32,000 nucleotides of DNA, from NCBI RefSeq assembly GCF_020969955.1, contig NZ_JAHDSX010000002.1, positions 30,001 through 62,000 of the forward strand, read 5' to 3'. Source of the DNA: Allobaculum fili. Lineage in GTDB: Bacteria > Bacillota_I > Bacilli_A > Erysipelotrichales > Erysipelotrichaceae. The position numbers and the translations under genes were made by a program. Positions 11,806-32,000 of this stretch are shown here, piece by piece. How positions within the stretch are numbered: the first letter of the stretch is position 1; each line of letters begins with the position of its first letter. The notes below the pieces were generated by a model. That model did not search any database and had not been told where the DNA came from. It saw only the letters and a list, made by a program, of their open reading frames with translations.

Positions 11806-14019
11806 ATGGCGACTAAACACAGCGTCACGATTGAAGAATGTATGGAACATATTCAGACCTACATTCATCGCAAAGAAAATCTTGAGCTGATCGAAAAAGC
11901 CTGGAAATTCGCAGATCATGCCCACGAGGGACAGAAGCGAAGATCGGGCGAACCGTATACGGTTCACGTCATTCAGGTCGCCGACATTCTGGCTGGACTG
12001 CACTGTTCGCCCAAAACCATTGCCGCCGGTCTGCTCCATGACACGCTTGAAGACTGCGATGATGTTACGTACGAAATTCTGGAACAGGAATTTTCTACGG
12101 AAATCGCCGATCTGGTCGAAGCCGTCACCAAAATTGGAAAGATCAAAAAGGAATTCAAGGACGAAAAGGAATACCAGGCCAGCAATCACCGCAAAATCTT
12201 TATCGCGATGGCCAAGGACGTCCGCGTCATTCTGATCAAACTGGCTGACCGTCTTCATAACATGCGCACACTGGAATACCAGTCCGAATCCGCGCAGAAG
12301 CGCATCGCCCGCGAAACGCTCCAGGTGTACGCGCCGATCGCCCATCGTCTTGGTATTTCGCAGGTAAAAAACGAACTCGAAGATCTGAGCTTCAAGTATC
12401 TCGATCCAAGAGAATACCAGAACATCAAGCAGCTCGTCGCCAACCGCGAAAGCGAACGTAACGAGCAGGTTACCGAGATGATCAACGACATCAAGACCAT
12501 TCTCGACAATTACCATATTCCATACCGTATTTTCGGCCGCTCCAAGCACTTCTACTCCATCCATAAAAAGATGGTCACCAAGCACAAACGCTTCGAAGAA
12601 ATTCTCGACTTGCAGGCGATTCGAATCATTACCGATTCCATCGCGCACTGCTACGAAATTCTCGGCTACATTCACGCCACCTATACGCCAATCCCTGGCC
12701 GCTTCAAGGACTACATCGCGATGCCAAAAAGCAACCTGTATCAGTCCCTGCACACAACGGTCATCTCCTCGGCATCCGGCAGCACGTTTGAAATCCAGAT
12801 CCGTACCGAAGAGATGGATTCCGTTGCCGAAAAAGGTGTCGCCGCCCACTGGCTGTACAAGGAAAACAAGTCTGGCATGGACGAGGGGATGCAGACGAGG
12901 GAAATGGAAGACAAGCTTTCCTGGTTCCGCGATTTCTCCATCATCACCGACGAAGACAGTGAAGATCCGCTCGAATACATGAACACGGTGCAGAAGGACA
13001 TTTTCGAAGCCAACGTCTACTGCTTCACCCCGCGCGGCAAAGTCATCTCGCTGCCCAGCGGGGCGACGCCCATTGACTTTGCCTATCGCATTCATACCGA
13101 AGTCGGCAACCATACTGTCGGCGCACAGGTCAACGGCGGCATCGTTCCGCTCAATACTCCCCTCAAAACCGGCGATGTGGTTTCGATCATGACCAACAAA
13201 GCGTCGGCCGGCCCTTCGCCCGACTGGATCAAGATCGTCAAGAGCGCCCACGCCCGAAACAAGATCCGTGCTTTTTTCCAGAAACAGGCGCAGAAAGACA
13301 AGCGCGAAGATGTTCGCAAAGGACAGGAAATGTTAATGGACGACATGAAAAAGGCCGGACTCGATCCGTCCATCGTCCGTACATCCAAGAAAATCGACTC
13401 GATTTTGCAGAGCCTTTCCTTTAAAACGAGCGACGACCTGTACGCGGGCATTGCCGCCAAACGCATTCCGACTGCGGTCGTCATTGAACGTCTGAACACG
13501 ACTAAGGCGGCCGTCGATGACAACGAAGAAATCATCAAGCTGTTCTCGAAAAACGAGAAAAAGGAAAAAGTGTCCGACTGCGGCATCGTCGTACCGGGCA
13601 TCGACACGATCAAAGTGTCCCTTTCGCCCTGCTGCTCGCCGATCCCCGGCGATGAAGTCGTCGGCTACATCACCAAGGGTCATGGCGTCAAAGTTCACTG
13701 CAGGGACTGCCCGAACATTGCCAAGGAGTCAAAGCGTCTGATTCCTGTCGCCTGGGGCGATAATCTCGAAGACAAAACGTATCCGGTTCACCTGCAGATC
13801 GAATCCAATGATCGCAATTATCTGCTTTCGGATCTCGTTACGGTTTTCCAGCAAAACGGCATTTCCATACGGGCCATCAATTCAACCGTCAATAGCGATT
13901 CGCTGACCGCGACGACCAAAATTGAAATCATGGTGCGGAATTCCGAATCTCTTGAACGTCTGATCGCCAATCTGCGCAAGGTTCGCTCCGTCCTTTCGGT
14001 CACCCGTGTCATCCTGTAA
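11806..14019 (+). CDS. relA: Bifunctional (p)ppGpp synthetase/hydrolase (RelA/SpoT homolog, long RSH)
   Basis: 737 aa with an HD hydrolase domain ('HDTLED'), a synthetase domain ('RFKDYIAMPKSNLYQSLHT'), and TGS and ACT-like C-terminal domains. RBS is AGGAGG. Confidence 0.95.
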   Translation: MATKHSVTIEECMEHIQTYIHRKENLELIEKAWKFADHAHEGQKRRSGEPYTVHVIQVADILAGLHCSPKTIAAGLLHDTLEDCDDVTYEILEQEFSTEIADLVEAVTKIGKIKKEFKDEKEYQASNHRKIFIAMAKDVRVILIKLADRLHNMRTLEYQSESAQKRIARETLQVYAPIAHRLGISQVKNELEDLSFKYLDPREYQNIKQLVANRESERNEQVTEMINDIKTILDNYHIPYRIFGRSKHFYSIHKKMVTKHKRFEEILDLQAIRIITDSIAHCYEILGYIHATYTPIPGRFKDYIAMPKSNLYQSLHTTVISSASGSTFEIQIRTEEMDSVAEKGVAAHWLYKENKSGMDEGMQTREMEDKLSWFRDFSIITDEDSEDPLEYMNTVQKDIFEANVYCFTPRGKVISLPSGATPIDFAYRIHTEVGNHTVGAQVNGGIVPLNTPLKTGDVVSIMTNKASAGPSPDWIKIVKSAHARNKIRAFFQKQAQKDKREDVRKGQEMLMDDMKKAGLDPSIVRTSKKIDSILQSLSFKTSDDLYAGIAAKRIPTAVVIERLNTTKAAVDDNEEIIKLFSKNEKKEKVSDCGIVVPGIDTIKVSLSPCCSPIPGDEVVGYITKGHGVKVHCRDCPNIAKESKRLIPVAWGDNLEDKTYPVHLQIESNDRNYLLSDLVTVFQQNGISIRAINSTVNSDSLTATTKIEIMVRNSESLERLIANLRKVRSVLSVTRVIL

Positions 14020-16079: not shown

Positions 16080-16108
16080 TATAATTTGCAGATAGGGTCC
16101 TATCTGCA
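16080..16108 (+). promoter_or_regulatory. TATAAT -10 box followed by a 10+2+10 inverted repeat (candidate operator)
   Basis: TATAAT at 16080-16085. TGCAGATAGG (16087-16096), gt, CCTATCTGCA (16099-16108) form perfect arms 44 nt upstream of the ImmA-like gene start. Confidence 0.5.
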
Positions 16109-16151
16109 TTTTGTTTCTCGTTCAAGAATTAAAGAGAAAGAGGGTGTTAAT

Positions 16152-18089
16152 GTGAAAACCATGGATGACTTCAAAGCTTATCTGTTGAAAGTATATAAAG
16201 GAAAAATCGAGGAGCGGATTTCTGAAGATTTGACAGATTTGTTTAATCAGATTTGTGAGTTCAAGAATAATTGGTGCAAACAACCAGTCATTAAGTCTGA
16301 TTTCACTCTGCTTGAATGCGAGCTAGAATTTTCTTCAATGTCGAAAATTATCGCACATCTCCTGGTCGATGTTCATTTCGCTTGTTATGAAGTGACAATG
16401 GATAATGATGGAAATGCCGACTGGGATGTCTACGCTGCTGACCAACACACTGGAGCCTATCTTAAGCTCGAGGCGGATATCAAAGACGATCTCACCTGGT
16501 TTCAAATCTGCGATTCTTCACTGATCATTTCTGAAGATCCTTTTGAATACTTCAAAGCAAGACTTCCGGAAAATGGCCTGTTCTACTCAGACAAACTTCT
16601 CCCCCAAATTACATCTCACGACCTTAACGCTGTCGCATGTAGATTCCTGGAGGACTGCTATTATTCCAACCCTGAATGTGAACGTGGCAAAGAAATCGAC
16701 CTCATGAAGTTGGCGGAAAATATGAGGCTGACCGTTAAACTGATCAGTACCCTGTGCCGTCATGAAATTGACGGACAAATCTTCTTCAGTGATGGAACAT
16801 ACACCGATTACAATATGTGGACCGATACTTGCTCACAGGAAAACGCTACTCCTGGAACTGTGGTGGTTTATACGGGCCACTCTAGCAATCGGCACAACAA
16901 CACATTAGTTCATGAGTGCTTGCACTGGTATTTGCATCGAGCATCATTCTATTTGCAGAGACTATTAGGACATGAGCTGCCGAGCATAACTTGTCGAAAA
17001 AGCACAATGCAAGGCTATGAACACGGTGATTACTGTCAAATTCGCGAGTGGCAATCCAATAAGATTTCCCCACTCGTGCTGGTTCCATCCAGTGATAACT
17101 TACTGGAGTTAGCCCATGCTGAATTTGAAAAGGTGATTCAATCAGATCCCGGGTGTTTTCAACTAGATGCGGCAGACTCTGTAATCCGATCATTGGCAAA
17201 AAAATATAACGTATCTCCTCAGCTTTTTGCGATCCGCCTCAAAGAAGAAGGGGCAAAAAACTTAGACGGCTTTTATCGGTGTCCAAACAAAAAGTCTGTT
17301 GGCTTATCTTCCTATTGCGATCCATACCTTCTTCGTGATTGGGAACTGCGATTTGGTCAAACCTATGACATTTCTTTAGAAGAGTTTGAACAGTGGCTAG
17401 AAGAGAATCCTACAATGAAAGAAGCCCACGATCTCAACATCATTAAGCATATTGACGGTCACGTGTGCCTAGTGAAACCAAATTTATGTTCGCCGGTCAG
17501 TCCATCAAATTTATCTGAGTATGCCCGAATGCATATGGATGAATTCTGCCTTGTTTTTAACGAAAACAAATCTCGAAATTCTTATGGAGACAATTCATCC
17601 ATCCAAAACCCGAATCGTGCTGTTCCTGTTGATACTTTTAAAAAGGTGAAACAGATCATTCTGACAAACCCAACCAACCAGGAAGCAATGCAGTGGATCA
17701 AGAAACAAAGTGACGATATTCGCAATACACTGCGGACACTTGTTCAAGAGTTGAGCGCCGATACCAAAACTCTAAAAAAGTGGTCTGGATATACTACTGA
17801 AGCCATAGCCTATCAGGGTCATATAAGCGAAAGTGCGTTCAAAAATATCCTTTCTAGCAAAACCGAGGAGCCAAAACTCGAGACGCTCATCTGCCTTTGT
17901 TTTGGTATGAAATTGCCATACAAGCTTTCACTTGCTCTTTTGGAAGCCGGTGGAAAACACCTCAATAATTCTGAAACGCAATCTTGCTACGATGAGATAT
18001 TGCAGAACTATACATATGATTCACTCGAAGTCGCCAACGCATATCTAGCCTGGTGCGATATAAAACCTCTAGGAAATCCGTTGGATTAG
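16152..18089 (+). CDS. Large ImmA/IrrE-type zinc metalloprotease fused to a C-terminal XRE-like HTH, with an unknown ~190-aa N-terminal domain
   Basis: 'HECLH' HExxH at 16911-16925, with a downstream 'EWQSNKISPLVLVP' that matches the ImmA 'E..AN.FA..LL.P' pattern. The C-terminus 'ISESAFKNILS....PKLETLICLCFGMKLPYKLSLALLEAGG' is XRE-HTH-like. A GTG start at 16152 with a GAGGG RBS is preferred over the TTG at 16086. Confidence 0.6.
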   Translation: MKTMDDFKAYLLKVYKGKIEERISEDLTDLFNQICEFKNNWCKQPVIKSDFTLLECELEFSSMSKIIAHLLVDVHFACYEVTMDNDGNADWDVYAADQHTGAYLKLEADIKDDLTWFQICDSSLIISEDPFEYFKARLPENGLFYSDKLLPQITSHDLNAVACRFLEDCYYSNPECERGKEIDLMKLAENMRLTVKLISTLCRHEIDGQIFFSDGTYTDYNMWTDTCSQENATPGTVVVYTGHSSNRHNNTLVHECLHWYLHRASFYLQRLLGHELPSITCRKSTMQGYEHGDYCQIREWQSNKISPLVLVPSSDNLLELAHAEFEKVIQSDPGCFQLDAADSVIRSLAKKYNVSPQLFAIRLKEEGAKNLDGFYRCPNKKSVGLSSYCDPYLLRDWELRFGQTYDISLEEFEQWLEENPTMKEAHDLNIIKHIDGHVCLVKPNLCSPVSPSNLSEYARMHMDEFCLVFNENKSRNSYGDNSSIQNPNRAVPVDTFKKVKQIILTNPTNQEAMQWIKKQSDDIRNTLRTLVQELSADTKTLKKWSGYTTEAIAYQGHISESAFKNILSSKTEEPKLETLICLCFGMKLPYKLSLALLEAGGKHLNNSETQSCYDEILQNYTYDSLEVANAYLAWCDIKPLGNPLD

Positions 18090-24753: not shown

Positions 24754-25227
24754 ATGGATAACAAGACATACCTTGACCAGCTGGATCGGATCAAGAAATC
24801 CATCTGGCTGCTCGATTTGAAAATTGAACGCAAGGAGCAAGCCCTGCACAGCATTTCTTCTCCAGGTTTTGAACCGCACTATTCGAACGGTGGTCCATCC
24901 GGTGATGCTGCTCATGCCAAGAGAATCATTGAGCTGGAAACCTTAAGAGCCAACCGGAAGACCATCATGGAAATCTACCAGCACTTTGAGCAAGAATTGG
25001 AAACCATTCTGGACCAACAGAACTCAGAATGCTCGGAGATTTTGGCCGATCGCTACCTCAAAAACATGACTTTGAGAGAAATCGGCTACCACTTCGGCTA
25101 CGGGAAAACGACCATCAGCCGAAAGATGATGCAAGGAATCGACAGCTTAGTCCTCCCAAAACAGCCCTTTATCGCTGAAAATGCCTTCAAAGCAAAGGGC
25201 CTTCAGGAGTTTTTGGTCGCTGCTTGA
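24754..25227 (+). CDS. Late-gene transcriptional regulator, sigma region-4-like (RinA/ArpU/DUF1492-type position and motif)
   Basis: 157 aa. 'ILADRYLKNMTLREIGYHFGYGKTTISRKMMQG' is a region-4-type HTH. The gene lies just upstream of the packaging module. Confidence 0.6.
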   Translation: MDNKTYLDQLDRIKKSIWLLDLKIERKEQALHSISSPGFEPHYSNGGPSGDAAHAKRIIELETLRANRKTIMEIYQHFEQELETILDQQNSECSEILADRYLKNMTLREIGYHFGYGKTTISRKMMQGIDSLVLPKQPFIAENAFKAKGLQEFLVAA

Positions 25228-25636: not shown

Positions 25637-25939
25637 ATGCCTGGCTACAGAGTAAGAAAACGTGATGACAAGTACGAGGTTCTCTATCCCAGCGGGAAGG
25701 TTCGCTGCCGTGTGGATGATGGCGAGCTTGCCTATGAGATCGCTAATGATCTCATGAGAGAGCGATCTCAGGAGCCCACACCCGTGAGGTGCGTGGAGTC
25801 CGGAGAGATCTTCAAAGACCACTACGAAGCGGCCAGAGAGTATGGCGGTAATCCTAACGGGATCAAGCGTTGCTGCCTTGGAATCATCTCCCGTTCGTGT
25901 GGTCTTCATTGGGAGTTTGCCGATGCCCTTGAAGCCTAA
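25637..25939 (+). CDS. Small phage protein with a homing-endonuclease-associated (NUMOD-like) DNA-binding motif
   Basis: ATG 25637 follows GGAGGTG. 'VRCVESGEIFKDHYEAAREYGGNPNGIKRCCLG..RSCGLHWEF' resembles the 'V.C.eTGe.F.S..eAa...g.....I..cc.g....agG.hW.y' motif of phage endonuclease DNA-binding modules. Confidence 0.4.
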   Translation: MPGYRVRKRDDKYEVLYPSGKVRCRVDDGELAYEIANDLMRERSQEPTPVRCVESGEIFKDHYEAAREYGGNPNGIKRCCLGIISRSCGLHWEFADALEA

Positions 25940-26276
25940 ACACCCATGCGGCTGGCCAGGCTGTCCCAACCTCACCGACAAAGCCTATTGCCCTGAACAC
26001 ACCAAAGCAGCCAACAGACGCTACGAAAAGTACAGACGTGATCCCGGAACAAGATCCCGTTATGGAAAAGCCTGGCAGGTTGCTCGTAAGAAATACAAAG
26101 CGAAGCATCCGCTCTGTGAGATGTGTCTGGCTGATGGCAAAGCCGTGCCCATGGAGCAGGTTCATCACATTGTTCCGCTCTCACAGGGTGGAACCCATGA
26201 CGAAAGTAACCTTATGAGCTTATGCAAAAGCTGCCACTCCAGGATTCATGCAAAAGAAAAAGGACATTGGAGGTAA
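25923..26276 (+). CDS. HNH endonuclease (terminase-associated type)
   Basis: 'CEMC...HHIVPLSQGGTHDESNLMSLCKSCHSRIH'. ATG 25923 follows GGGAG. The gene is positioned directly upstream of terS, as in HK97-like cos phages. Confidence 0.85.
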   Translation: MPLKPKHPCGWPGCPNLTDKAYCPEHTKAANRRYEKYRRDPGTRSRYGKAWQVARKKYKAKHPLCEMCLADGKAVPMEQVHHIVPLSQGGTHDESNLMSLCKSCHSRIHAKEKGHWR

Positions 26277-26450
26277 AAAATGTATGATTTTCACCATTTT
26301 TTGCCCAGGGGCGGTCTAAATCTCAAGCCTGCTGCTTGACAAATAACGAGGGCGGCCTTTAACGCACGAAAATTCGATTTCAAACGGGTAAATAGGCCGA
26401 AGCAAAAAATCGAAAGAAAAAAATTTTTTAATCCAAAAGGAGGGTGAGAA

Positions 26451-26618
26451 ATGAAGCAATACAAATTTGAAATCATGAGGTCAGGCAATCTTGTCTCATC
26501 ACTTACTGAAATGGAGAGTTTTGTTAACAAATATGCAAAAAAGGGATGGGATTTGAAGTCTATTCAGCATTTCCCAGATATGTCGACGTACCTCTTCATA
26601 TTCACCAAAACAGTTTAA
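26451..26618 (+). CDS. 55-aa DUF4177-like protein (not in the ORF track)
   Basis: A strong AAAGGAGGGTG RBS sits 5 nt before the ATG. The protein is MKQYKFEIMRSGNLVSSLTEMESFVNKYAKKGWDLKSIQHFPDMSTYLFIFTKTV. The 'YK..........e....n.ya.kGWdL.s' pattern is typical of DUF4177. Confidence 0.55.
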   Translation: MKQYKFEIMRSGNLVSSLTEMESFVNKYAKKGWDLKSIQHFPDMSTYLFIFTKTV

Positions 26619-26641
26619 GGAGCTTTGAAAGGAGGTCCGAA

Positions 26642-27172
26642 ATGGCAAAAGACGGTACTAGACGAGGCGGAGCAAGACCTGGAGCAGGTCGAAAAAAGAA
26701 GTCCGCAATTGAAAAAATGGATGCTGGAGAGGCCATTTCTTTGATCTTACCAGAACCGGTAGACCTGATTGGGACGGATTGTCCTCCGGTCAAGGAATAC
26801 CTGAAAGCCAATCAGAAATGCGGCATTGACCTGTCCGCAGCCGATGTGTTTGAGGATACATGGAAGTGGCTGGCTGCCAGAGGGTGCGAAAAGCTGGTCT
26901 CTCAAAATCTGATCGAGCAGTACGCAATGTCCGTTGCTCGATATATTCAGTGCGAGACCGCTATTTCTGACTACGGATTTCTGGCTAAACACCCTACAAG
27001 TGGAAATCCAATGCAGTCTCCCTATGTGGCGATGAGCCAGAACTACATGAAGCAGGCCAACCAGATCTGGTATCAGATCTTCCAGGTGGTAAAGGAAAAC
27101 TGCACCGAGTCCTGGAGCGGAAACACACCGCAGGATAACGTGATGGAGCTGTTGCTCCGGAAAAAAGGATAG
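26642..27172 (+). CDS. terS: Terminase small subunit, P27 family
   Basis: ATG 26642 follows GGAGGT. The N-terminus is basic ('GGARPGAGRKKKS'). 'LIEQYAMSVARYIQCETAISDYGFL...SPYVAMSQNYMKQANQIW' is P27-type. Confidence 0.8.
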   Translation: MAKDGTRRGGARPGAGRKKKSAIEKMDAGEAISLILPEPVDLIGTDCPPVKEYLKANQKCGIDLSAADVFEDTWKWLAARGCEKLVSQNLIEQYAMSVARYIQCETAISDYGFLAKHPTSGNPMQSPYVAMSQNYMKQANQIWYQIFQVVKENCTESWSGNTPQDNVMELLLRKKG

Positions 27173-27183
27173 GAGGTCCTCTC

Positions 27184-28434
27184 TTGATTATCGAAACGAA
27201 AAAACTGCAGGAGCTTATCCCTGCTGACTATAACCCGCGAAAAGATCTGCAGCCTGGTGATCCAGAATATGAAAAACTCAAACGCTCCATCGATGAGTTT
27301 GGTTATGTCGATCCCATCATCTGGAACAAAAGAACCGGTAGAATCTGTGGAGGACATCAGAGATTTAAAATTTTGAAGGCCCAGGGTGTAGAAGAAGCCG
27401 AAGTAGTGATCGTCGACTTCGACGAGGAGAAGGAGAAAGCCTTCAATATTGCTCTCAACAAGGTAAATGGTGATTGGGACAAGGACAAGCTGGCCCTGCT
27501 GATCACCGATCTGCAGGCCTCGGACTTTGATGTATCTCTGACCGGCTTTGACCCTGCGGAGCTGGATGATCTGATGGGCAGCGACAGTGATGCAAAAGAC
27601 GATAACTTTGATGTGCAGGCTGAATTGGAGAAGCCTGCTTTTTCTTTGCCCGGAGATATCTGGACCATCGGAAAACACCGAGTCATCTGTGGGGATTCAA
27701 CGGACCCAACGGTCTTTGAACGACTGCTCCAGGACACCAAGGTCAATCTGGTGTGCACCGATGCTCCCTATTTCGTCGATCTGAACAGCACGTCCGGAAA
27801 GATCAAAAACGACAACCTCAACGACAAGGAAGCCTACGAATTCCTGATGAAGGTCTTCACCAATCTCAAAAACGCCATGGCTATTGATGCTTCCATTTAC
27901 GAGTTCTACGCGACGATGAAATCCAGAATTTTCTATGACGCATTCGAAGATGCTGGTTTCAAAGTCGGAGCAGGTCTCGTCTGGAAGAAACCTCGGGCTC
28001 CCTTCATGCGAACCGACTGGAAATTCAACATGGAGCCCATCATCTTCGGCTGGCGAAAAGATGGAAAGCACAAATGGTATGGCGACCAGAAGCAGACGGC
28101 TGTGTTTGAATTCGACGGAATTAAGGATTCCAAAAAAGACGGACACGGCCATCCATCTTCCAAGCCAATCCCGCTGATTGCTTATCTGATTGAGCAGTCC
28201 ACTGCGACCAACGGACTGGTGCTGGATTGCTTCCTGGGTTCTGCTTCCACCCTGATGGCCTGCGAACAGATCAATCGCATCTGCTACGGCATCGAGCTGG
28301 AACCGAAGTTTGTCGATGTAGCCGTCAAGCGATACATCGAGTACACGGGTTCTAACCAGGATGTGTTTGTCATTCGTGATGGTAAAAAGCTCCCGTACTC
28401 CGCTGTTGTTCCTGCTTCGGAAGAGTCGGAATAA
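27184..28434 (+). CDS. ParB-like nuclease domain fused to a beta-class N6A/N4C DNA methyltransferase
   Basis: The TTG start follows AGGAGG. The ParB-N region is 'ADYNPRKD...FGYVDPIIWN...GGHQRF'. Motif IV is 'CTDAPYF'. Motif I, 'VLDCFLGSASTLMA', is C-terminal (IV before I means beta class). Confidence 0.8.
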   Translation: MIIETKKLQELIPADYNPRKDLQPGDPEYEKLKRSIDEFGYVDPIIWNKRTGRICGGHQRFKILKAQGVEEAEVVIVDFDEEKEKAFNIALNKVNGDWDKDKLALLITDLQASDFDVSLTGFDPAELDDLMGSDSDAKDDNFDVQAELEKPAFSLPGDIWTIGKHRVICGDSTDPTVFERLLQDTKVNLVCTDAPYFVDLNSTSGKIKNDNLNDKEAYEFLMKVFTNLKNAMAIDASIYEFYATMKSRIFYDAFEDAGFKVGAGLVWKKPRAPFMRTDWKFNMEPIIFGWRKDGKHKWYGDQKQTAVFEFDGIKDSKKDGHGHPSSKPIPLIAYLIEQSTATNGLVLDCFLGSASTLMACEQINRICYGIELEPKFVDVAVKRYIEYTGSNQDVFVIRDGKKLPYSAVVPASEESE

Positions 28435-28468: not shown

Positions 28469-28508
28469 GCTTGCTATGTATCTCCTTTAGAGTGATATAT
28501 ACAGTGCC
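28469..28508 (+). promoter_or_regulatory. Promoter-like 40-bp repeat, copy A (TTGCTA ... TGaTATATA)
   Basis: GCTTGCTATGTATCTcCtTTAGAGTGATATATACAGTgCC matches copy B at 37/40 positions. It ends 22 nt upstream of the amidoligase ATG. Confidence 0.55.
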
Positions 28509-28530: not shown

Positions 28531-29457
28531 ATGAAGAACACAGCGAAACAGATCGAAAACATGAAGAAACAGACGATTGGGGTCGAGATCGAAATGGCAG
28601 GCATTACTCGCAAGGCAGCCATCAAGGTCATCGCAAAGTACTTCAACACCGAAGACACCATCGAACACCAGGGTGGCGGATACGACCGCTACACCTGCGA
28701 AGACAACCAGGGCAGAACCTGGCAGATCATGAAGGACGTCAGCATCCAGGACACCTTCAGCAAGCAGACCGAGATGGTTACCCCGATTCTTCACTACGAA
28801 GACATCGAAACCCTGCAGGAGCTGGTCAGAGCCCTTCGCAAACGCGGAGCCATTTCCAACCCGGAACACGGATGCGGAGTTCACATCCACATCGGAGCCG
28901 ACGGCCACAACGCAAAAGCCCTGCGGAATCTGGTCAACATCATGGCAAGCCATGAAGCCCTGATCAAAGAAGCCTTGAACCTCGACAACGCACGCGTTAG
29001 ACGCTATTGCCGGATGGTTGACCAAGACTTCCTCGAAAAGCTCAACGACAAAAAGCCAGCCACCATGAGCCAGCTTGCAGACCTTTGGTACGCAGGAACC
29101 TGGGGTTCCAGAAACGCCCACTACAACGAATCGAGATACCACATGCTTAACCTCCACGCCACCTTCACCAAGGGAACCATCGAGTTCAGACTTTTCCAAT
29201 TTGACAACCCAACCGAAGATCGCAAGGGCGGCCTTCACGCAGGACAGCTCAAGAGCTACATCCAGTTTTGCCTGGCACTGAGCCAAATGGCCAAAGATGC
29301 CAAGAGCGCTTCCCCAAGGCCACAGCAGAACGAAAACCCCAAGTACGCGATGAGAACCTGGCTCCTTCGCCTGGGCTTCATTGGAGAAGAATTCAAAACC
29401 GCACGCGAAACCCTGACGAAGAGACTGAGCGGAAACGCAGCCTTCCGGATGGCTTAA
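28531..29457 (+). CDS. Amidoligase_2-family enzyme (glutamine-synthetase/GCS-like putative amide-bond ligase)
   Basis: 308 aa from ATG 28531 (RBS AAGGGAG). 'IGVEIEMAG', 'TEMVTPIL', 'GCGVHIHIG', 'RYHMLNL' and 'GTIEFRLFQ' are the recalled pattern of the phage/plasmid 'putative amidoligase enzyme' family. Confidence 0.7.
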   Translation: MKNTAKQIENMKKQTIGVEIEMAGITRKAAIKVIAKYFNTEDTIEHQGGGYDRYTCEDNQGRTWQIMKDVSIQDTFSKQTEMVTPILHYEDIETLQELVRALRKRGAISNPEHGCGVHIHIGADGHNAKALRNLVNIMASHEALIKEALNLDNARVRRYCRMVDQDFLEKLNDKKPATMSQLADLWYAGTWGSRNAHYNESRYHMLNLHATFTKGTIEFRLFQFDNPTEDRKGGLHAGQLKSYIQFCLALSQMAKDAKSASPRPQQNENPKYAMRTWLLRLGFIGEEFKTARETLTKRLSGNAAFRMA

Positions 29458-29467
29458 GGAGGACAAC

Positions 29468-29920
29468 ATGAAAAACTACGCAGCCTACGGCAGCAACCTC
29501 AACATCGGTCAGATGAGCCACAGATGCCCAGGAGCCAAGCTCCTGGGTACTGCCTGGCTTGAAGACTGGCAGCTTCTCTTCAAAGGAAGCAAGACCGGTT
29601 CCTACCTGACGATCGAACCAAAGAAAGGCAGCCGGGTCCCACTTGGGATCTGGAAGGTGAGCAAAGCCGATGAGCAAATGCTTGATATCTACGAAGGCTG
29701 CCCGGACTTTTACCAGAAGTACGAACAGACGTTGAACGTGTGTCTGGAAGGTGGAACCACCAAACGTATGAAGGTCTTCTTCTACGCAATGCCCACCAGT
29801 GCAAAACTGGGTCTTCCCTCCAGGCGCTACCTTCTGGTCTGTCTTGAAGGCTACCGGGGCTTCGGATTTGACTCGGCCTTTTTAGAAGAAGCCTTGAGGG
29901 CTTCAAGGAGAACGAAATGA
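29468..29920 (+). CDS. Gamma-glutamylcyclotransferase (GGCT/AIG2-like) family protein
   Basis: 150 aa with the typical GGCT N-terminus 'AAYGSNLNIGQMSHRCPGAKLLG' and 'LDIYEG.P..Y'. RBS is AAGGAGG. Confidence 0.75.
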   Translation: MKNYAAYGSNLNIGQMSHRCPGAKLLGTAWLEDWQLLFKGSKTGSYLTIEPKKGSRVPLGIWKVSKADEQMLDIYEGCPDFYQKYEQTLNVCLEGGTTKRMKVFFYAMPTSAKLGLPSRRYLLVCLEGYRGFGFDSAFLEEALRASRRTK

Positions 29921-30135
29921 AAGACATCCCTGCAACAACCCAGATCTGTCCACGGTGCGGACGAAAGTACAAAGAACCGCCTGCTATTTCCAGGCAGGAC
30001 AACAAAACGGAAATCTGCCCCTTGTGTGGGACCAGAGAGGCTCTGGACGCTCTTGGAATTGACCGGCTGGAGCAAGAACACATCCTTTGTACCATCGATT
30101 TCTACAGCCATCAGGCACGCAAAAACAAGAAGTAA
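29917..30135 (+). CDS. Small zinc-ribbon protein (CxxC...CxxC)
   Basis: 72 aa with 'CPRCGRKY' and 'CPLCGTREAL'. An ATGA overlap with the GGCT stop indicates translational coupling. Confidence 0.6.
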   Translation: MKDIPATTQICPRCGRKYKEPPAISRQDNKTEICPLCGTREALDALGIDRLEQEHILCTIDFYSHQARKNKK

Positions 30136-30141
30136 ACCGGT

Positions 30142-30180
30142 AGAATCAGAGAAAGAAAAAGCTCTGATTCTGCTTTATTT
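30142..30180 (+). terminator. Rho-independent terminator closing the amidoligase cassette
   Basis: AGAATCAGAG / CTCTGATTCT 10-bp perfect stem, 10-nt loop, followed by GCTTTATTTAT. Confidence 0.65.
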
Positions 30181-30191
30181 ATCGCTGATTT

Positions 30192-30231
30192 GCTTGCTAT
30201 GTATCTTCGTTAGAGTGATATATACAGTACC
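30192..30231 (+). promoter_or_regulatory. Promoter-like 40-bp repeat, copy B
   Basis: GCTTGCTATGTATCTtCgTTAGAGTGATATATACAGTaCC ends 18 nt upstream of ATG 30250. Confidence 0.55.
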
Positions 30232-30249: not shown

Positions 30250-30564
30250 ATGACAAACAAAGAAGCAAAACATCAGGTATTCATGGAGGCGCATGCAAGA
30301 TGGCTGGCCAACCAGGAGAAACATTACGGATACAACGAGAACGTTGGAAAATACCAGGACGACCTCAACGAGATGGTTTGGGCAGACTGGGAATTCACCG
30401 AAGCCCACGAAAAACTCTGGAGCGACTACATCAGATACTTCGAAGAAGGCATCAGCCCCTACAAAGCAAAGCTGAGCAAGAAAGAAATCGAACGCCGCCT
30501 GGAAAAGAAAATGGACGACATGGTTCAGGCCGAGTTCAAACGCTACGCGAAAGCGACCTACTAG
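30250..30564 (+). CDS. Hypothetical helical protein (104 aa)
   Basis: It has a GGAGG RBS and its own promoter-like repeat and downstream terminator. I recognise no family. Confidence 0.5.
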   Translation: MTNKEAKHQVFMEAHARWLANQEKHYGYNENVGKYQDDLNEMVWADWEFTEAHEKLWSDYIRYFEEGISPYKAKLSKKEIERRLEKKMDDMVQAEFKRYAKATY

Positions 30565-30576
30565 AAAGCAATACCC

Positions 30577-30596
30577 AAAGGCCTGCGGGCCTTTTT
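30577..30596 (+). terminator. Short intrinsic terminator 17 nt upstream of the terL start
   Basis: AAAGGCC tgcg GGCCTTT plus TTTTT, then the GGAGG RBS of terL. Confidence 0.5.
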
Positions 30597-30613
30597 AGAT
30601 TGGAGGTTTCCTT

Positions 30614-32000
30614 ATGGCAATGCGAAAGCTGAAAAAATACAAACCTACAAAGTTCAAGGCTCGCACATCTTATTACGATAAGGAAGCAGCCGACTATGCG
30701 GTTAACTTTATCCAGTGCCTGTGCCACACCAAAGGAACCTGGGCTGGTAAACCCTTTGAGCTGATCGACTGGCAGGAACAGATCGTGAGGGATCTGTTTG
30801 GAATCAAAAAAAAGAACGGTTATCGTCAGTTCAATACAGCCTATATTGAGATAGGAAAAAAGATGGGCAAACAAGTTGCGTTAAATACATTAATTCCTAC
30901 TCCAAAAGGCTTTACCACGATGGGGGAGATCAAGGTTGGCGATACCGTATTCGATGAAACCGGATCTCCGTGTCACGTAGTGGCCAAGAGTCAGGTCGAT
31001 TTTGACGAGCAGGCCTATCGTATTGTGTTCAAAGATGGAGAGGTCATCGAAGCTGGTGAGAACCATCAGTGGATTGGAGAGAAGCATCAAAAACCGATAA
31101 TGATGACAACCGGTGACTTGTACAGGTATTTCCAAACCAAATCCTACAATTTTCGGATTGCTGTCAATGGAGCGCTGGAAGCCCCTGAAGCGGAGCTGCC
31201 GATCGATCCATACCTGATGGGGTATTGGCTTGGTAACGGACATGCCACCAAGCCAGAAATTACTGTAAAGACTTCCGATGTTCCGGAAGTCCTTTTTAAT
31301 GTCCAGCAGAACACTGTAGTCAACAACGCCTGGTTGAATGTTGGCGACTCACTAATTTTCAAAATCAACGAGCTGAAGCCAGTCCTGCTCAAGTCATTCC
31401 ATGACAAAGTGATTCCGATTGAATATCTTCGTGCCTCTAAAGAACAACGGCTCCGCCTTTTGCAGGGATTGATGGACTCTGATGGATGTATCTCAGGAGT
31501 AAAAGGACAAGGAGTTTACTACTCCACAGAAAAGAGGTTAGCGGAAACAGTTAGTGAACTCCTGTGGACGCTGGGAATCAAAAATGCGATCACCTCAACT
31601 CCATCTACGCAACCGGCTAATAGGGATATGCCAAGCCAGGAATGTGGCAGAGTTGCTACCGGTGAAACCTGCTATATGATCAAATTCACCTGCTTTGACG
31701 ATGTGAAAGTTGCTGGTCTATCCAGAAAACTAAAGAATCGGATTCCCAGAAATCCAACGACCAGATCCCATTTTCGATATATCGACTCGATTGAGAAAAT
31801 CGAGAACCGAGGAATGCAATGCATCCAGGTGGATAGCCCGTCCCATCAATACTTGATTGGCAAAAGCTGTCTTCCAACGCACAACTCAGAGCTTGCAGCG
31901 GCCATTGCATTGCTCCTCACCTGCGGAGATGGAGAGCAGCGAGCTGAAGTGTACGGCTGCGCTTCGGATCGTCAGCAGGCATCCATTGTTTTTGATGTTG
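30614..32000 (+). CDS. terL: Terminase large subunit (Terminase_1-like), intein-containing, 3'-truncated by the window edge
   Basis: An open frame runs from ATG 30614 (RBS GGAGG) to the window end, and I checked it codon by codon. It is missing from the ORF track because it has no stop. The exteins join as 'YIEIGKKMGK|SELAAAIALLLTCGDGEQRAEVYGCASDRQQASIVFDV', giving Walker A GKKMGKS and the typical TerL continuation. Confidence 0.85.
   Translation, partial: MAMRKLKKYKPTKFKARTSYYDKEAADYAVNFIQCLCHTKGTWAGKPFELIDWQEQIVRDLFGIKKKNGYRQFNTAYIEIGKKMGKQVALNTLIPTPKGFTTMGEIKVGDTVFDETGSPCHVVAKSQVDFDEQAYRIVFKDGEVIEAGENHQWIGEKHQKPIMMTTGDLYRYFQTKSYNFRIAVNGALEAPEAELPIDPYLMGYWLGNGHATKPEITVKTSDVPEVLFNVQQNTVVNNAWLNVGDSLIFKINELKPVLLKSFHDKVIPIEYLRASKEQRLRLLQGLMDSDGCISGVKGQGVYYSTEKRLAETVSELLWTLGIKNAITSTPSTQPANRDMPSQECGRVATGETCYMIKFTCFDDVKVAGLSRKLKNRIPRNPTTRSHFRYIDSIEKIENRGMQCIQVDSPSHQYLIGKSCLPTHNSELAAAIALLLTCGDGEQRAEVYGCASDRQQASIVFDV
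30872..31885 (+). mobile_element. 338-aa intein with a LAGLIDADG homing-endonuclease domain, inserted in the TerL P-loop
   Basis: Block A 'QVALNTLIPTPKGFTTMGEIKVGD', block B 'GENHQW', LAGLIDADG motifs 'YLMGYWLGNGH' and 'LLQGLMDSDGC', block F 'MQCIQVDSPSHQYLIG', and block G 'CLPTHN' followed by a +1 Ser. Confidence 0.8.

Follow-up and report, generated by a model that had tools for sequence, protein, structure and literature searches.

The stretch of Allobaculum fili DNA analysed here (the window, 32 kb, to which all coordinates refer) carries at positions 28531-30135, on the + strand throughout, a cassette of three genes encoding an amidoligase (AL), a cyclotransferase-fold enzyme (GGCT) and a small zinc-ribbon protein (ZnR):

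28531-29457, + strand: amidoligase AL, 308 aa, ATG start, an Amidoligase_2 protein with the GS/GCL-type carboxylate-amine ligase fold
29468-29920, + strand: GGCT/AIG2-like cyclotransferase-fold enzyme GGCT, 150 aa, Pfam GGACT, phrog_2520
29917-30135, + strand: zinc-ribbon protein ZnR, 72 aa, CxxC/CxxC, phrog_2945

The AL and GGCT genes are separated by 10 nt (29458-29467) with a GGAGG inside, and GGCT and ZnR are joined by an ATGA overlap, the ATG at 29917 lying over the TGA at 29918-29920. The layout given in a preliminary description of this DNA (three genes, a 10-nt gap, an ATGA overlap) was confirmed at every coordinate.

The same description had assigned the first gene to the amidoligases, and this assignment holds. 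AL matched Pfam Amidoligase_2 (PF12224) over residues 13-250 with an E-value of 1.3e-56 (192.7 bits, for a cut-off of 22), and phrog_2443, 'amidoligase', with an E-value of 2.4e-109. Its catalytic residues are intact: E19, E21, E81, H118, H120, E218 and R220 were invariant in 46 homologues. This ExE/E/HxH/ExR set would correspond to the metal- and ATP-binding pattern of GS and GCL. The AF2 model (pLDDT 88, pTM 0.89) found its best PDB fold matches in YbdK/GCS2 (1tt4, 1r8g), GshF (3ln7), plant GCL (2gwc), GS (9n4x) and Dop, the last at rank 33. Foldseek gave a probability of 1.00 to YbdK, GshF, plant GCL and GS, with modest TM-scores of 0.34-0.49, and no PDB relative detectable by sequence was found.

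GGCT also proved to be what had been proposed, a GGCT/AIG2-like protein. It matched Pfam GGACT (PF06094; E-value 7.5e-10, 39.9 bits for a cut-off of 22.8) and phrog_2520, 'gamma-glutamyl cyclotransferase' (E-value 8e-41). AIG2_2 (PF13772) scored 23.7, under its cut-off of 27; the assignment holds for the fold, the subfamily being GGCT or GGACT. The best PDB sequence match was human GGCT (2i5t/2pn7), with YGSNL aligned and the LDxYEG glutamate aligned to the DEQEG glutamate. Both parts of the catalytic motif, Y7-G-S-N-L11 and E76, were invariant in 65 distinct homologues.

ZnR consists of the motif CPxCG-x(19)-CPxCGTREAL (CPRC...CPLC) followed by two helices, and its AF2 model (pLDDT 87) shows a ribbon and two helices. 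It matched phrog_2945, 'unknown', with an E-value of 4.9e-19, and has 33 database homologues; its Pfam matches were to generic zinc ribbons and all sub-threshold, and a fold search of the model against the PDB returned no match at E <= 0.001. Invariance in the alignments is limited to the four Cys and a PA-S-D-T / G-A core. The C-termini differ in both length and sequence, with no invariant Lys and no terminal Glu or Gln; ZnR has neither the conserved C-terminal Gly-Gly-Gln/Glu nor the invariant acceptor Lys of a Pup-like protein. No NCBIfam model covers any of the three proteins. Among known defence systems, PADLOC-DB 2.0 gave no match for AL or GGCT, and only sub-threshold zinc-ribbon noise for ZnR.

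A protein search at E <= 1e-5 gave at least 8000 proteins, IMG/VR has 375 relatives, and 198 matches were found among species-representative genomes (Lachnospiraceae, Oscillospiraceae, Erysipelotrichaceae and others). Gene neighbourhoods were surveyed at 80 IMG/VR loci (ligase identity 65-88%), and at 80 loci from species-representative genomes of diverse Bacillota. At the 80 IMG/VR loci the order ligase, cyclotransferase, zinc ribbon was kept wherever downstream DNA exists. In the species-representative genomes AL and GGCT were adjacent at 73 of 73 loci, and the trio was complete, with ZnR directly downstream of GGCT, at 72 of them. The conserved linkage anticipated in the preliminary description is therefore tight, across about 150 related loci. 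At the 71 IMG/VR loci with linkage, the neighbours belong to 7 different families upstream and 11 downstream; terS, encoding the small terminase subunit, lay upstream of the trio in 36 loci and downstream in 9. Because the flanks vary while the trio is constant, we conclude that the trio travels as a unit. The closest deposited phages to the window prophage are Ca. Heliusvirales, and most of the sampled deposited genomes of this group carry the cassette. The idea that it is mainly cargo of plasmids or integrative and conjugative elements was dropped, as just 6 plasmid records match and none has a conjugative-element context.

The two enzymes are also found together at a greater distance. In a collection of 50,697 phage records, a hand tally put AL in about 41 of the 45 records that have a GGCT homologue, and GGCT lay no more than about 1 kb downstream of AL wherever both matches were comparable. 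The pair recurs in unrelated phages at an AL identity of only 23-25%: Bacillus phage PBC5 encodes an Amidoligase_2 (8e-34) and a GGACT protein (2e-23), and in Arthrobacter phage Waltz the genes for GGACT, Amidoligase_2 and a class-II GATase follow one another. The cyclotransferases of these two lineages are not BLAST-similar to that of the window. We regard the recurrence of the pair in separate lineages as the strongest evidence that both enzymes would work together.

The ZnR gene is restricted to the close clade, the pair occurring without it in the Bacillus and Arthrobacter phages. Two exceptions to this restriction were seen: Faecalibacterium phage Taranis, where a distant ZnR copy accompanies the ligase with no detectable cyclotransferase, and FP_Mushu, which has a ZnR copy and is not among the listed ligase or cyclotransferase matches of the phage collection. 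The preliminary description had considered ZnR a plausible substrate. This is now disfavoured, given its variable C-terminus, the lack of an invariant Lys and its absence from distant lineages that keep the enzyme pair. ZnR would rather be a clade-specific partner, and a specificity, scaffolding or regulatory subunit seems more likely than a substrate. Cys-rich elements were seen beside the cyclotransferase in the two distant lineages as well, which makes three lineages in all, with no evident sequence similarity to the window ZnR. The PBC5 GGACT protein (L089:5685-6341) ends in a 70-aa Cys-rich tail (CDNC...CGCNCCECG...CNC), and in Waltz a Cys-rich 175-aa ORF (L086:2650-3177) overlaps the start of the GGACT gene.

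Three further features frame the cassette:

28469-28508, + strand: promoter-like element, copy 1, ending 23 nt before the AL ATG
30139-30182, + strand: intrinsic-terminator-like hairpin, 4 nt past the ZnR stop, then a UUUAUUUAU U tract
30192-30231, + strand: promoter-like element, copy 2, preceding orf104 and terL (large terminase subunit)

The two copies of the promoter-like element are identical at 37 of 40 nt, for 0 expected by chance. They are the only copies in the window, and form the longest direct repeat within its prophage part. The element reads TTGCTA, a 17-nt spacer and GATATA (or TGaTATATA), with TTAGAG just 5' of the -10. The hairpin proper (30139-30174) has a 13-bp stem and a 10-nt loop, with a dG of -20.6 kcal/mol and a z of -3.68, and 1 of 200 shuffles folded equally well; a consensus scan missed it, presumably because the loop exceeds the 8-nt limit of the scan. 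That the cassette has a promoter-like element and a terminator of its own, as had been claimed, is thus borne out.

When the promoter-like motif was searched as a regular expression over about 1 Mb of related loci, 112 matches were obtained on the coding strand and none on the opposite one. In these relatives the motif heads AL, an AL pseudo-paralogue (see below), Nmad4, DUF7698 and terL. Of 124 distinct upstream regions from relatives, 71-88 have a homologous element 30-61 nt ahead of the ligase gene. Its variants combine TTGCTA or TTGATA, about 17 nt, and GAATAT, TAATAT or GATATA, with TTAGAG upstream and often a conserved downstream leader, ACCGAAAGGGAAAACAC.

The preliminary description had further suggested that the cassette could be expressed from the lysogen through its own promoter. 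This is disfavoured, since the same promoter-like sequence precedes orf104-terL in the window, and several island cassettes as well as terL in relatives. From its duplication before terL we infer co-regulation with the late genes: the cassette would probably be expressed late in lytic growth, along with the island's DNA-methylation genes, and possibly by way of the adjacent sigma-like regulator. The 40-nt repeats could also act as recombination sites, or as a homology patch for gain, loss or exchange of the cassette, which is compatible with a promoter function.

This arrangement resembles that of morons. These are accessory genes located in late operons, with a promoter and a terminator of their own, and in the classical cases they are expressed from the prophage. 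As in morons, a promoter-like element lies 5' and a terminator 3' of the cassette, which sits between genes that in relatives either adjoin each other or enclose other content, and has variable flanks. The difference is that the promoter-like element here copies the one preceding terL, so that late expression appears likelier.

In relatives the cassette belongs to an island, with the consensus order SNF2, sigma-like regulator, HNH, terS, SAM-synthetase-like, ParB-methyltransferase, C5-methyltransferase, a 230-300-aa protein, DUF4314, (DUF6809), AL-GGCT-ZnR, (Nmad4, DUF7698, DUF7678), terL, portal and capsid. PAPS-reductase-like genes are sometimes found just downstream of terL. The window has a minimal version of this island. 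Overall, the island reads as a string of cassettes under what appears to be one promoter class, also serving terL.

The 230-300-aa protein, encoded in most relatives and missing from the window, is a degenerate AL paralogue (hhalign probability 99.9%, E-value 5e-31). Examples lie just upstream of AL at L001:4915-5853, L082:3584-4234 and L083:4136-4900. This pseudo-AL has lost all catalytic residues, ExE, HxH and ExR among them, as well as an internal segment, and it keeps the basic C-terminal helices (...KYAFRxFLLRLGFIGxEYKxxRKxLLxNLxGSSAFK). It explains the 'two amidoligases' before the cyclotransferase reported by other authors, and it also explains the apparent separate C-terminal domain of AL. 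The C-terminal 75 aa of AL had been considered as a mobile domain with informative fusions. In an exhaustive search (1955 cluster representatives), 54 of the 63 long matches were amidoligases, the remaining Pfam matches were single or double members, and no partner recurred; this candidate was rejected. Streptococcus phage Javan108 has a pseudo-AL ('virulence-related protein') beside two methyltransferases and Nmad4, and has no ligase, cyclotransferase or zinc ribbon. DUF4314 is mostly encoded by a small gene of its own, directly 5' of the ligase (L003-L081). One cluster on 63 contigs (P0089, Ileibacterium valens, 411 aa) has DUF4314 as an N-terminal fusion to the amidoligase, a hint of a functional link. 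Literature searches on Nmad and DUF4314 found nothing useful.

The reading that we favour, with moderate confidence, is that AL and GGCT form a two-enzyme module attaching a gamma-glutamyl group to a small molecule and removing it again, and that this module is an accessory load of a temperate Bacillota phage, placed in its late region near the packaging genes. Judging from its fold, its conserved residues and the chemistry of its superfamily, AL would use ATP to activate the gamma-carboxylate of glutamate as an acyl-phosphate, and would join the activated glutamate to an amine acceptor, giving a gamma-glutamyl amide. To our knowledge, all characterised members of the superfamily (GS, GCL, PafA, gamma-glutamyl-polyamine synthetases) activate this same carboxylate, as do the enzymes closest to AL in fold, YbdK/GCS2 and Dop included. 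GGCT, by its family and catalytic residues, would then cyclise the gamma-glutamyl group to 5-oxoproline and release the amine. The net effect would be a transient masking of the amine, or a conversion of glutamate and ATP into 5-oxoproline in which the amine acts catalytically. As no intermediate enzyme is encoded, either a host step would intervene, or the adduct itself would be functional, or the two enzymes would run a glutamate-to-5-oxoproline cycle. The other partner of AL points to the same product. In proteobacteria and Arthrobacter phages this partner is a class-II GATase-like hydrolase, and GATase-like enzymes (EgtC, with PuuD as a class-I analogue) also remove gamma-glutamyl groups. 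Since both types of partner cleave gamma-glutamyl amides, the product of AL should be a gamma-glutamyl amide.

Two known kinds of pathway follow the same logic. In the gamma-glutamyl cycle (GCL/YbdK and human GGCT, C7orf24), GCL and GGCT together perform a ligate-then-cyclise sequence, and the cassette shares with it the GCL/GS fold of AL, and the YGSNL motif and catalytic Glu of GGCT. It differs in that AL is related to the PDB enzymes by fold only, at the low TM-scores given above, and has no glutathione synthetase or transpeptidase partner. In the protecting-group pathways BtrJ/BtrG (butirosin), EgtA/EgtC (ergothioneine) and PuuA/PuuD (putrescine), a gamma-glutamyl group is installed by an ATP-dependent ligase and later removed by a GGCT-fold or GATase-like enzyme; BtrJ is an ATP-grasp enzyme, not GS-like. 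The install-then-remove logic is the same, and Arthrobacter phages have AL with both kinds of remover. However, these pathways have chemistry between the two steps, and the window cassette encodes none.

The enzyme pairing itself is not new. The association of the ligase with AIG2 in Firmicutes was published in 2008 by Iyer, Burroughs and Aravind, from comparative genomics (PMC2588565), and the novelty suggested in the preliminary description was overstated in this respect. Clostridium clostridioforme and Terrisporobacter prophage examples were described likewise by earlier authors, and later genome papers merely repeat the amidoligase prediction. The statement of the preliminary description that such systems are known only from comparative genomics agrees with the searchable literature. 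The 2008 analysis judged peptide-metabolite synthesis likelier than protein conjugation, and had found no small Pup-like ORF (PMC2588565). Ligase family, partner family, host phylum and prophage location are the same in the 2008 systems and here. The difference lies in the zinc-ribbon ORF that follows GGCT in nearly all close relatives, where the 2008 paper had no small conserved ORF; the inactive paralogue, the promoter class and the fixed place between terS and terL are likewise not described in the literature examined. We conclude that the cassette is a further instance of a known, uncharacterised module and not a new kind of system. What is new is the conserved zinc-ribbon partner, the pseudo-ligase, the common promoter class and late-operon position, and the reappearance of both enzymes together across three phage lineages. 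The system, whose enzyme pair was first flagged eighteen years ago, is widespread, well defined, small and clonable, but would not surprise specialists. Ca. Heliusvirales is an order of phages with a reportedly high prevalence in the human gut and reported links to disease states (PMC11283538).

Several points weigh against the attach-and-remove reading. A ligase and a cyclotransferase with no step between them make a futile cycle, which is odd while packaging needs ATP. That glutamate is the carboxylate used by AL is deduced at the level of the superfamily. Taranis and Porphyromonas phages have AL and no GGCT, meaning that the second step is not obligatory. The role given to ZnR is a guess, its fold matching nothing informative. 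As to timing, late expression is argued from one observation, the promoter duplication, and the -35 and -10 hexamers are only moderate sigma-A matches that the consensus scan did not call. Finally, we found no experimental function or biochemistry for any member in the literature searched, and no paper linking cyclotransferase, prophage and 5-oxoproline.

Other explanations were weighed. Each has some support and clear weaknesses, and none reaches the confidence of the small-molecule module. The first is a metabolic manipulation of the host, in which a late futile cycle would drain glutamate and/or raise 5-oxoproline, or would destroy a gamma-glutamyl compound of the host. The absence of any enzyme between ligase and cyclotransferase in the minimal cassette of the window fits this, and GCL with GGCT is indeed the 5-oxoproline-producing futile cycle of glutathione synthetase deficiency. 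Wasting ATP during packaging nevertheless seems counter-productive, and the conserved ZnR and pseudo-ligase are left unexplained; we consider this unlikely.

Somewhat less likely still is a late, so far undescribed phage system in which AL, GGCT and ZnR, with the pseudo-AL where present, would attach gamma-glutamyl groups covalently and reversibly to a macromolecule while packaging goes on, ZnR doing the targeting. The target would be a protein (terminase, portal or capsid) or else the phage DNA or its counter-ions. If true, this would be a new phage modification or counter-defence chemistry in a highly prevalent human gut phage order.

A modification of DNA or nucleotides, where a glutamyl group added to a base or nucleotide, or transiently used on it, would let progeny DNA escape restriction, draws on the neighbourhood of the trio. 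The island is conserved and includes the SAM synthetase-like, ParB-methyltransferase, C5-methyltransferase and Nmad4 genes, with PAPS-reductase-like genes nearby; these cassettes and terL have a common promoter class; and the pseudo-AL of Javan108 lies beside two methyltransferases and Nmad4. Yet none of the additional C5-methyltransferase, SAM synthetase-like, Nmad4 and PAPS-reductase-like genes of the relatives is tied to AL. In the window the ParB-methyltransferase is the sole DNA-modifying enzyme among the prophage genes scanned, and a partner of the hydroxymethylase, DNA kinase, DpdA-like or glycosyltransferase type is absent. None of AL, GGCT and ZnR showed a nucleic-acid-binding or base-flipping domain, and the pair is not next to methyltransferases in PBC5 and Waltz. 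Moreover, the cyclotransferase would restore the original amine and leave no mark. This makes the idea improbable.

Protein or peptide tagging fares no better. Here AL would conjugate glutamate, or a peptide ending in Glu, to a protein amine, or would modify ZnR in the manner of PafA and Pup, and GGCT would erase the mark. Like pupylation (PafA/Dop/Pup), the cassette has a ligase of the PafA/Dop fold superfamily and a small protein gene nearby, conserved beside the pair in 72 of 73 loci, where the 2008 analysis had no such ORF. However, ZnR is a folded, Cys4-type zinc ribbon with a variable C-terminus and with neither an invariant Lys nor a terminal Glu or Gln, it is missing from the Bacillus and Arthrobacter phage pairs, there is no proteasome context, and the remover is a cyclotransferase instead of a Dop-like depupylase. 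The GGACT and GGCT enzymes known to us act on free gamma-glutamyl compounds, not on protein-bound ones. These differences leave tagging a poor prospect, and Iyer et al. argued against it for the amidoligase family (PMC2588565).

The last candidate, envelope modification for superinfection exclusion, by which AL would add an amino acid to an amine of a peptidoglycan or teichoic-acid precursor and so block adsorption of other phages, can point to the free Lys/mDAP amines and gamma-linked D-Glu of cytoplasmic peptidoglycan precursors, and to a prediction for the phiEco32 amidoligase (Iyer et al. 2009, as cited by other authors), but it is hard to credit given that the three sequences, on reading, have no obvious signal peptide or membrane segment, that the promoter is common to terL rather than to lysogeny genes, and that GGCT would undo the modification.

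As the preliminary description had stated, the cassette lies within the packaging module of the prophage, flanked by terS and the ParB-methyltransferase on one side and by orf104-terL on the other. The context genes are the following:

24754-25227: sigma-70 region-4-like regulator
25842-26276: HNH endonuclease
26546-27172, + strand: terS, small terminase subunit of the P27/Terminase_4 type
27184-28434, + strand: fusion of a ParB-N domain and an N6-N4 DNA methyltransferase, directly upstream of the cassette
30614-32000, + strand: terL, large terminase subunit, running beyond the end of the window

The ParB-methyltransferase matched Pfam N6_N4_Mtase (2.7e-25) and ParB_N (1.6e-4), phrog_498 (3.9e-156) and PADLOC MTase_II (6.7e-141). 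Positions 1 to about 15,000 are host chromosome, and the prophage starts somewhere around 15-16 kb. Its gene order is sigma-like, anti-repressor, primase, SNF2 helicase, sigma-70 region-4-like regulator, HNH, terS, ParB-N6/N4 methyltransferase, the AL-GGCT-ZnR trio, orf104 and terL. At its left end lies a 667-aa ORF (16086-18089) that matches phrog_4031 and has no Pfam match. The host half encodes a GtrB-like glycosyltransferase, an endonuclease, a clamp-loader-like ATPase, RecJ and RelA/SpoT (11806-14019).

An identical ligase protein is encoded on CP078088.1 (assembly GCA_022701175.1). Compared with window positions 30250-32000, this sequence is frameshifted in orf104 and terL, the latter being broken up into several ORFs. 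Indel errors from long reads in that assembly are the probable cause, or else the window derives from the second sample in which this contig occurs. The nearest ligase relatives are three copies, 97-98% identical, at three chromosomal sites of Allobaculum mucilyticum strain 128, which points to several related prophages in this one host.

The interval between HNH and terS (26277-26545) is 270 nt long and A/T-rich, and a 55-aa ORF (26451-26618) overlaps the start of the longest terS frame. From the HNH/P27-terS arrangement, this interval could hold a cos region. Lastly, terL contains a 338-aa intein-like insertion (30872-31885), at the point where the P-loop residues GKKMGK and SELAAA meet in intein-free relatives. 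The insertion has a LAGLIDADG_3 domain (E-value 6e-10), starts with QVALNT, not with Cys, and has ...THN|S at its end. This may be an intein of a non-canonical, perhaps class-3-like, type with a homing endonuclease.

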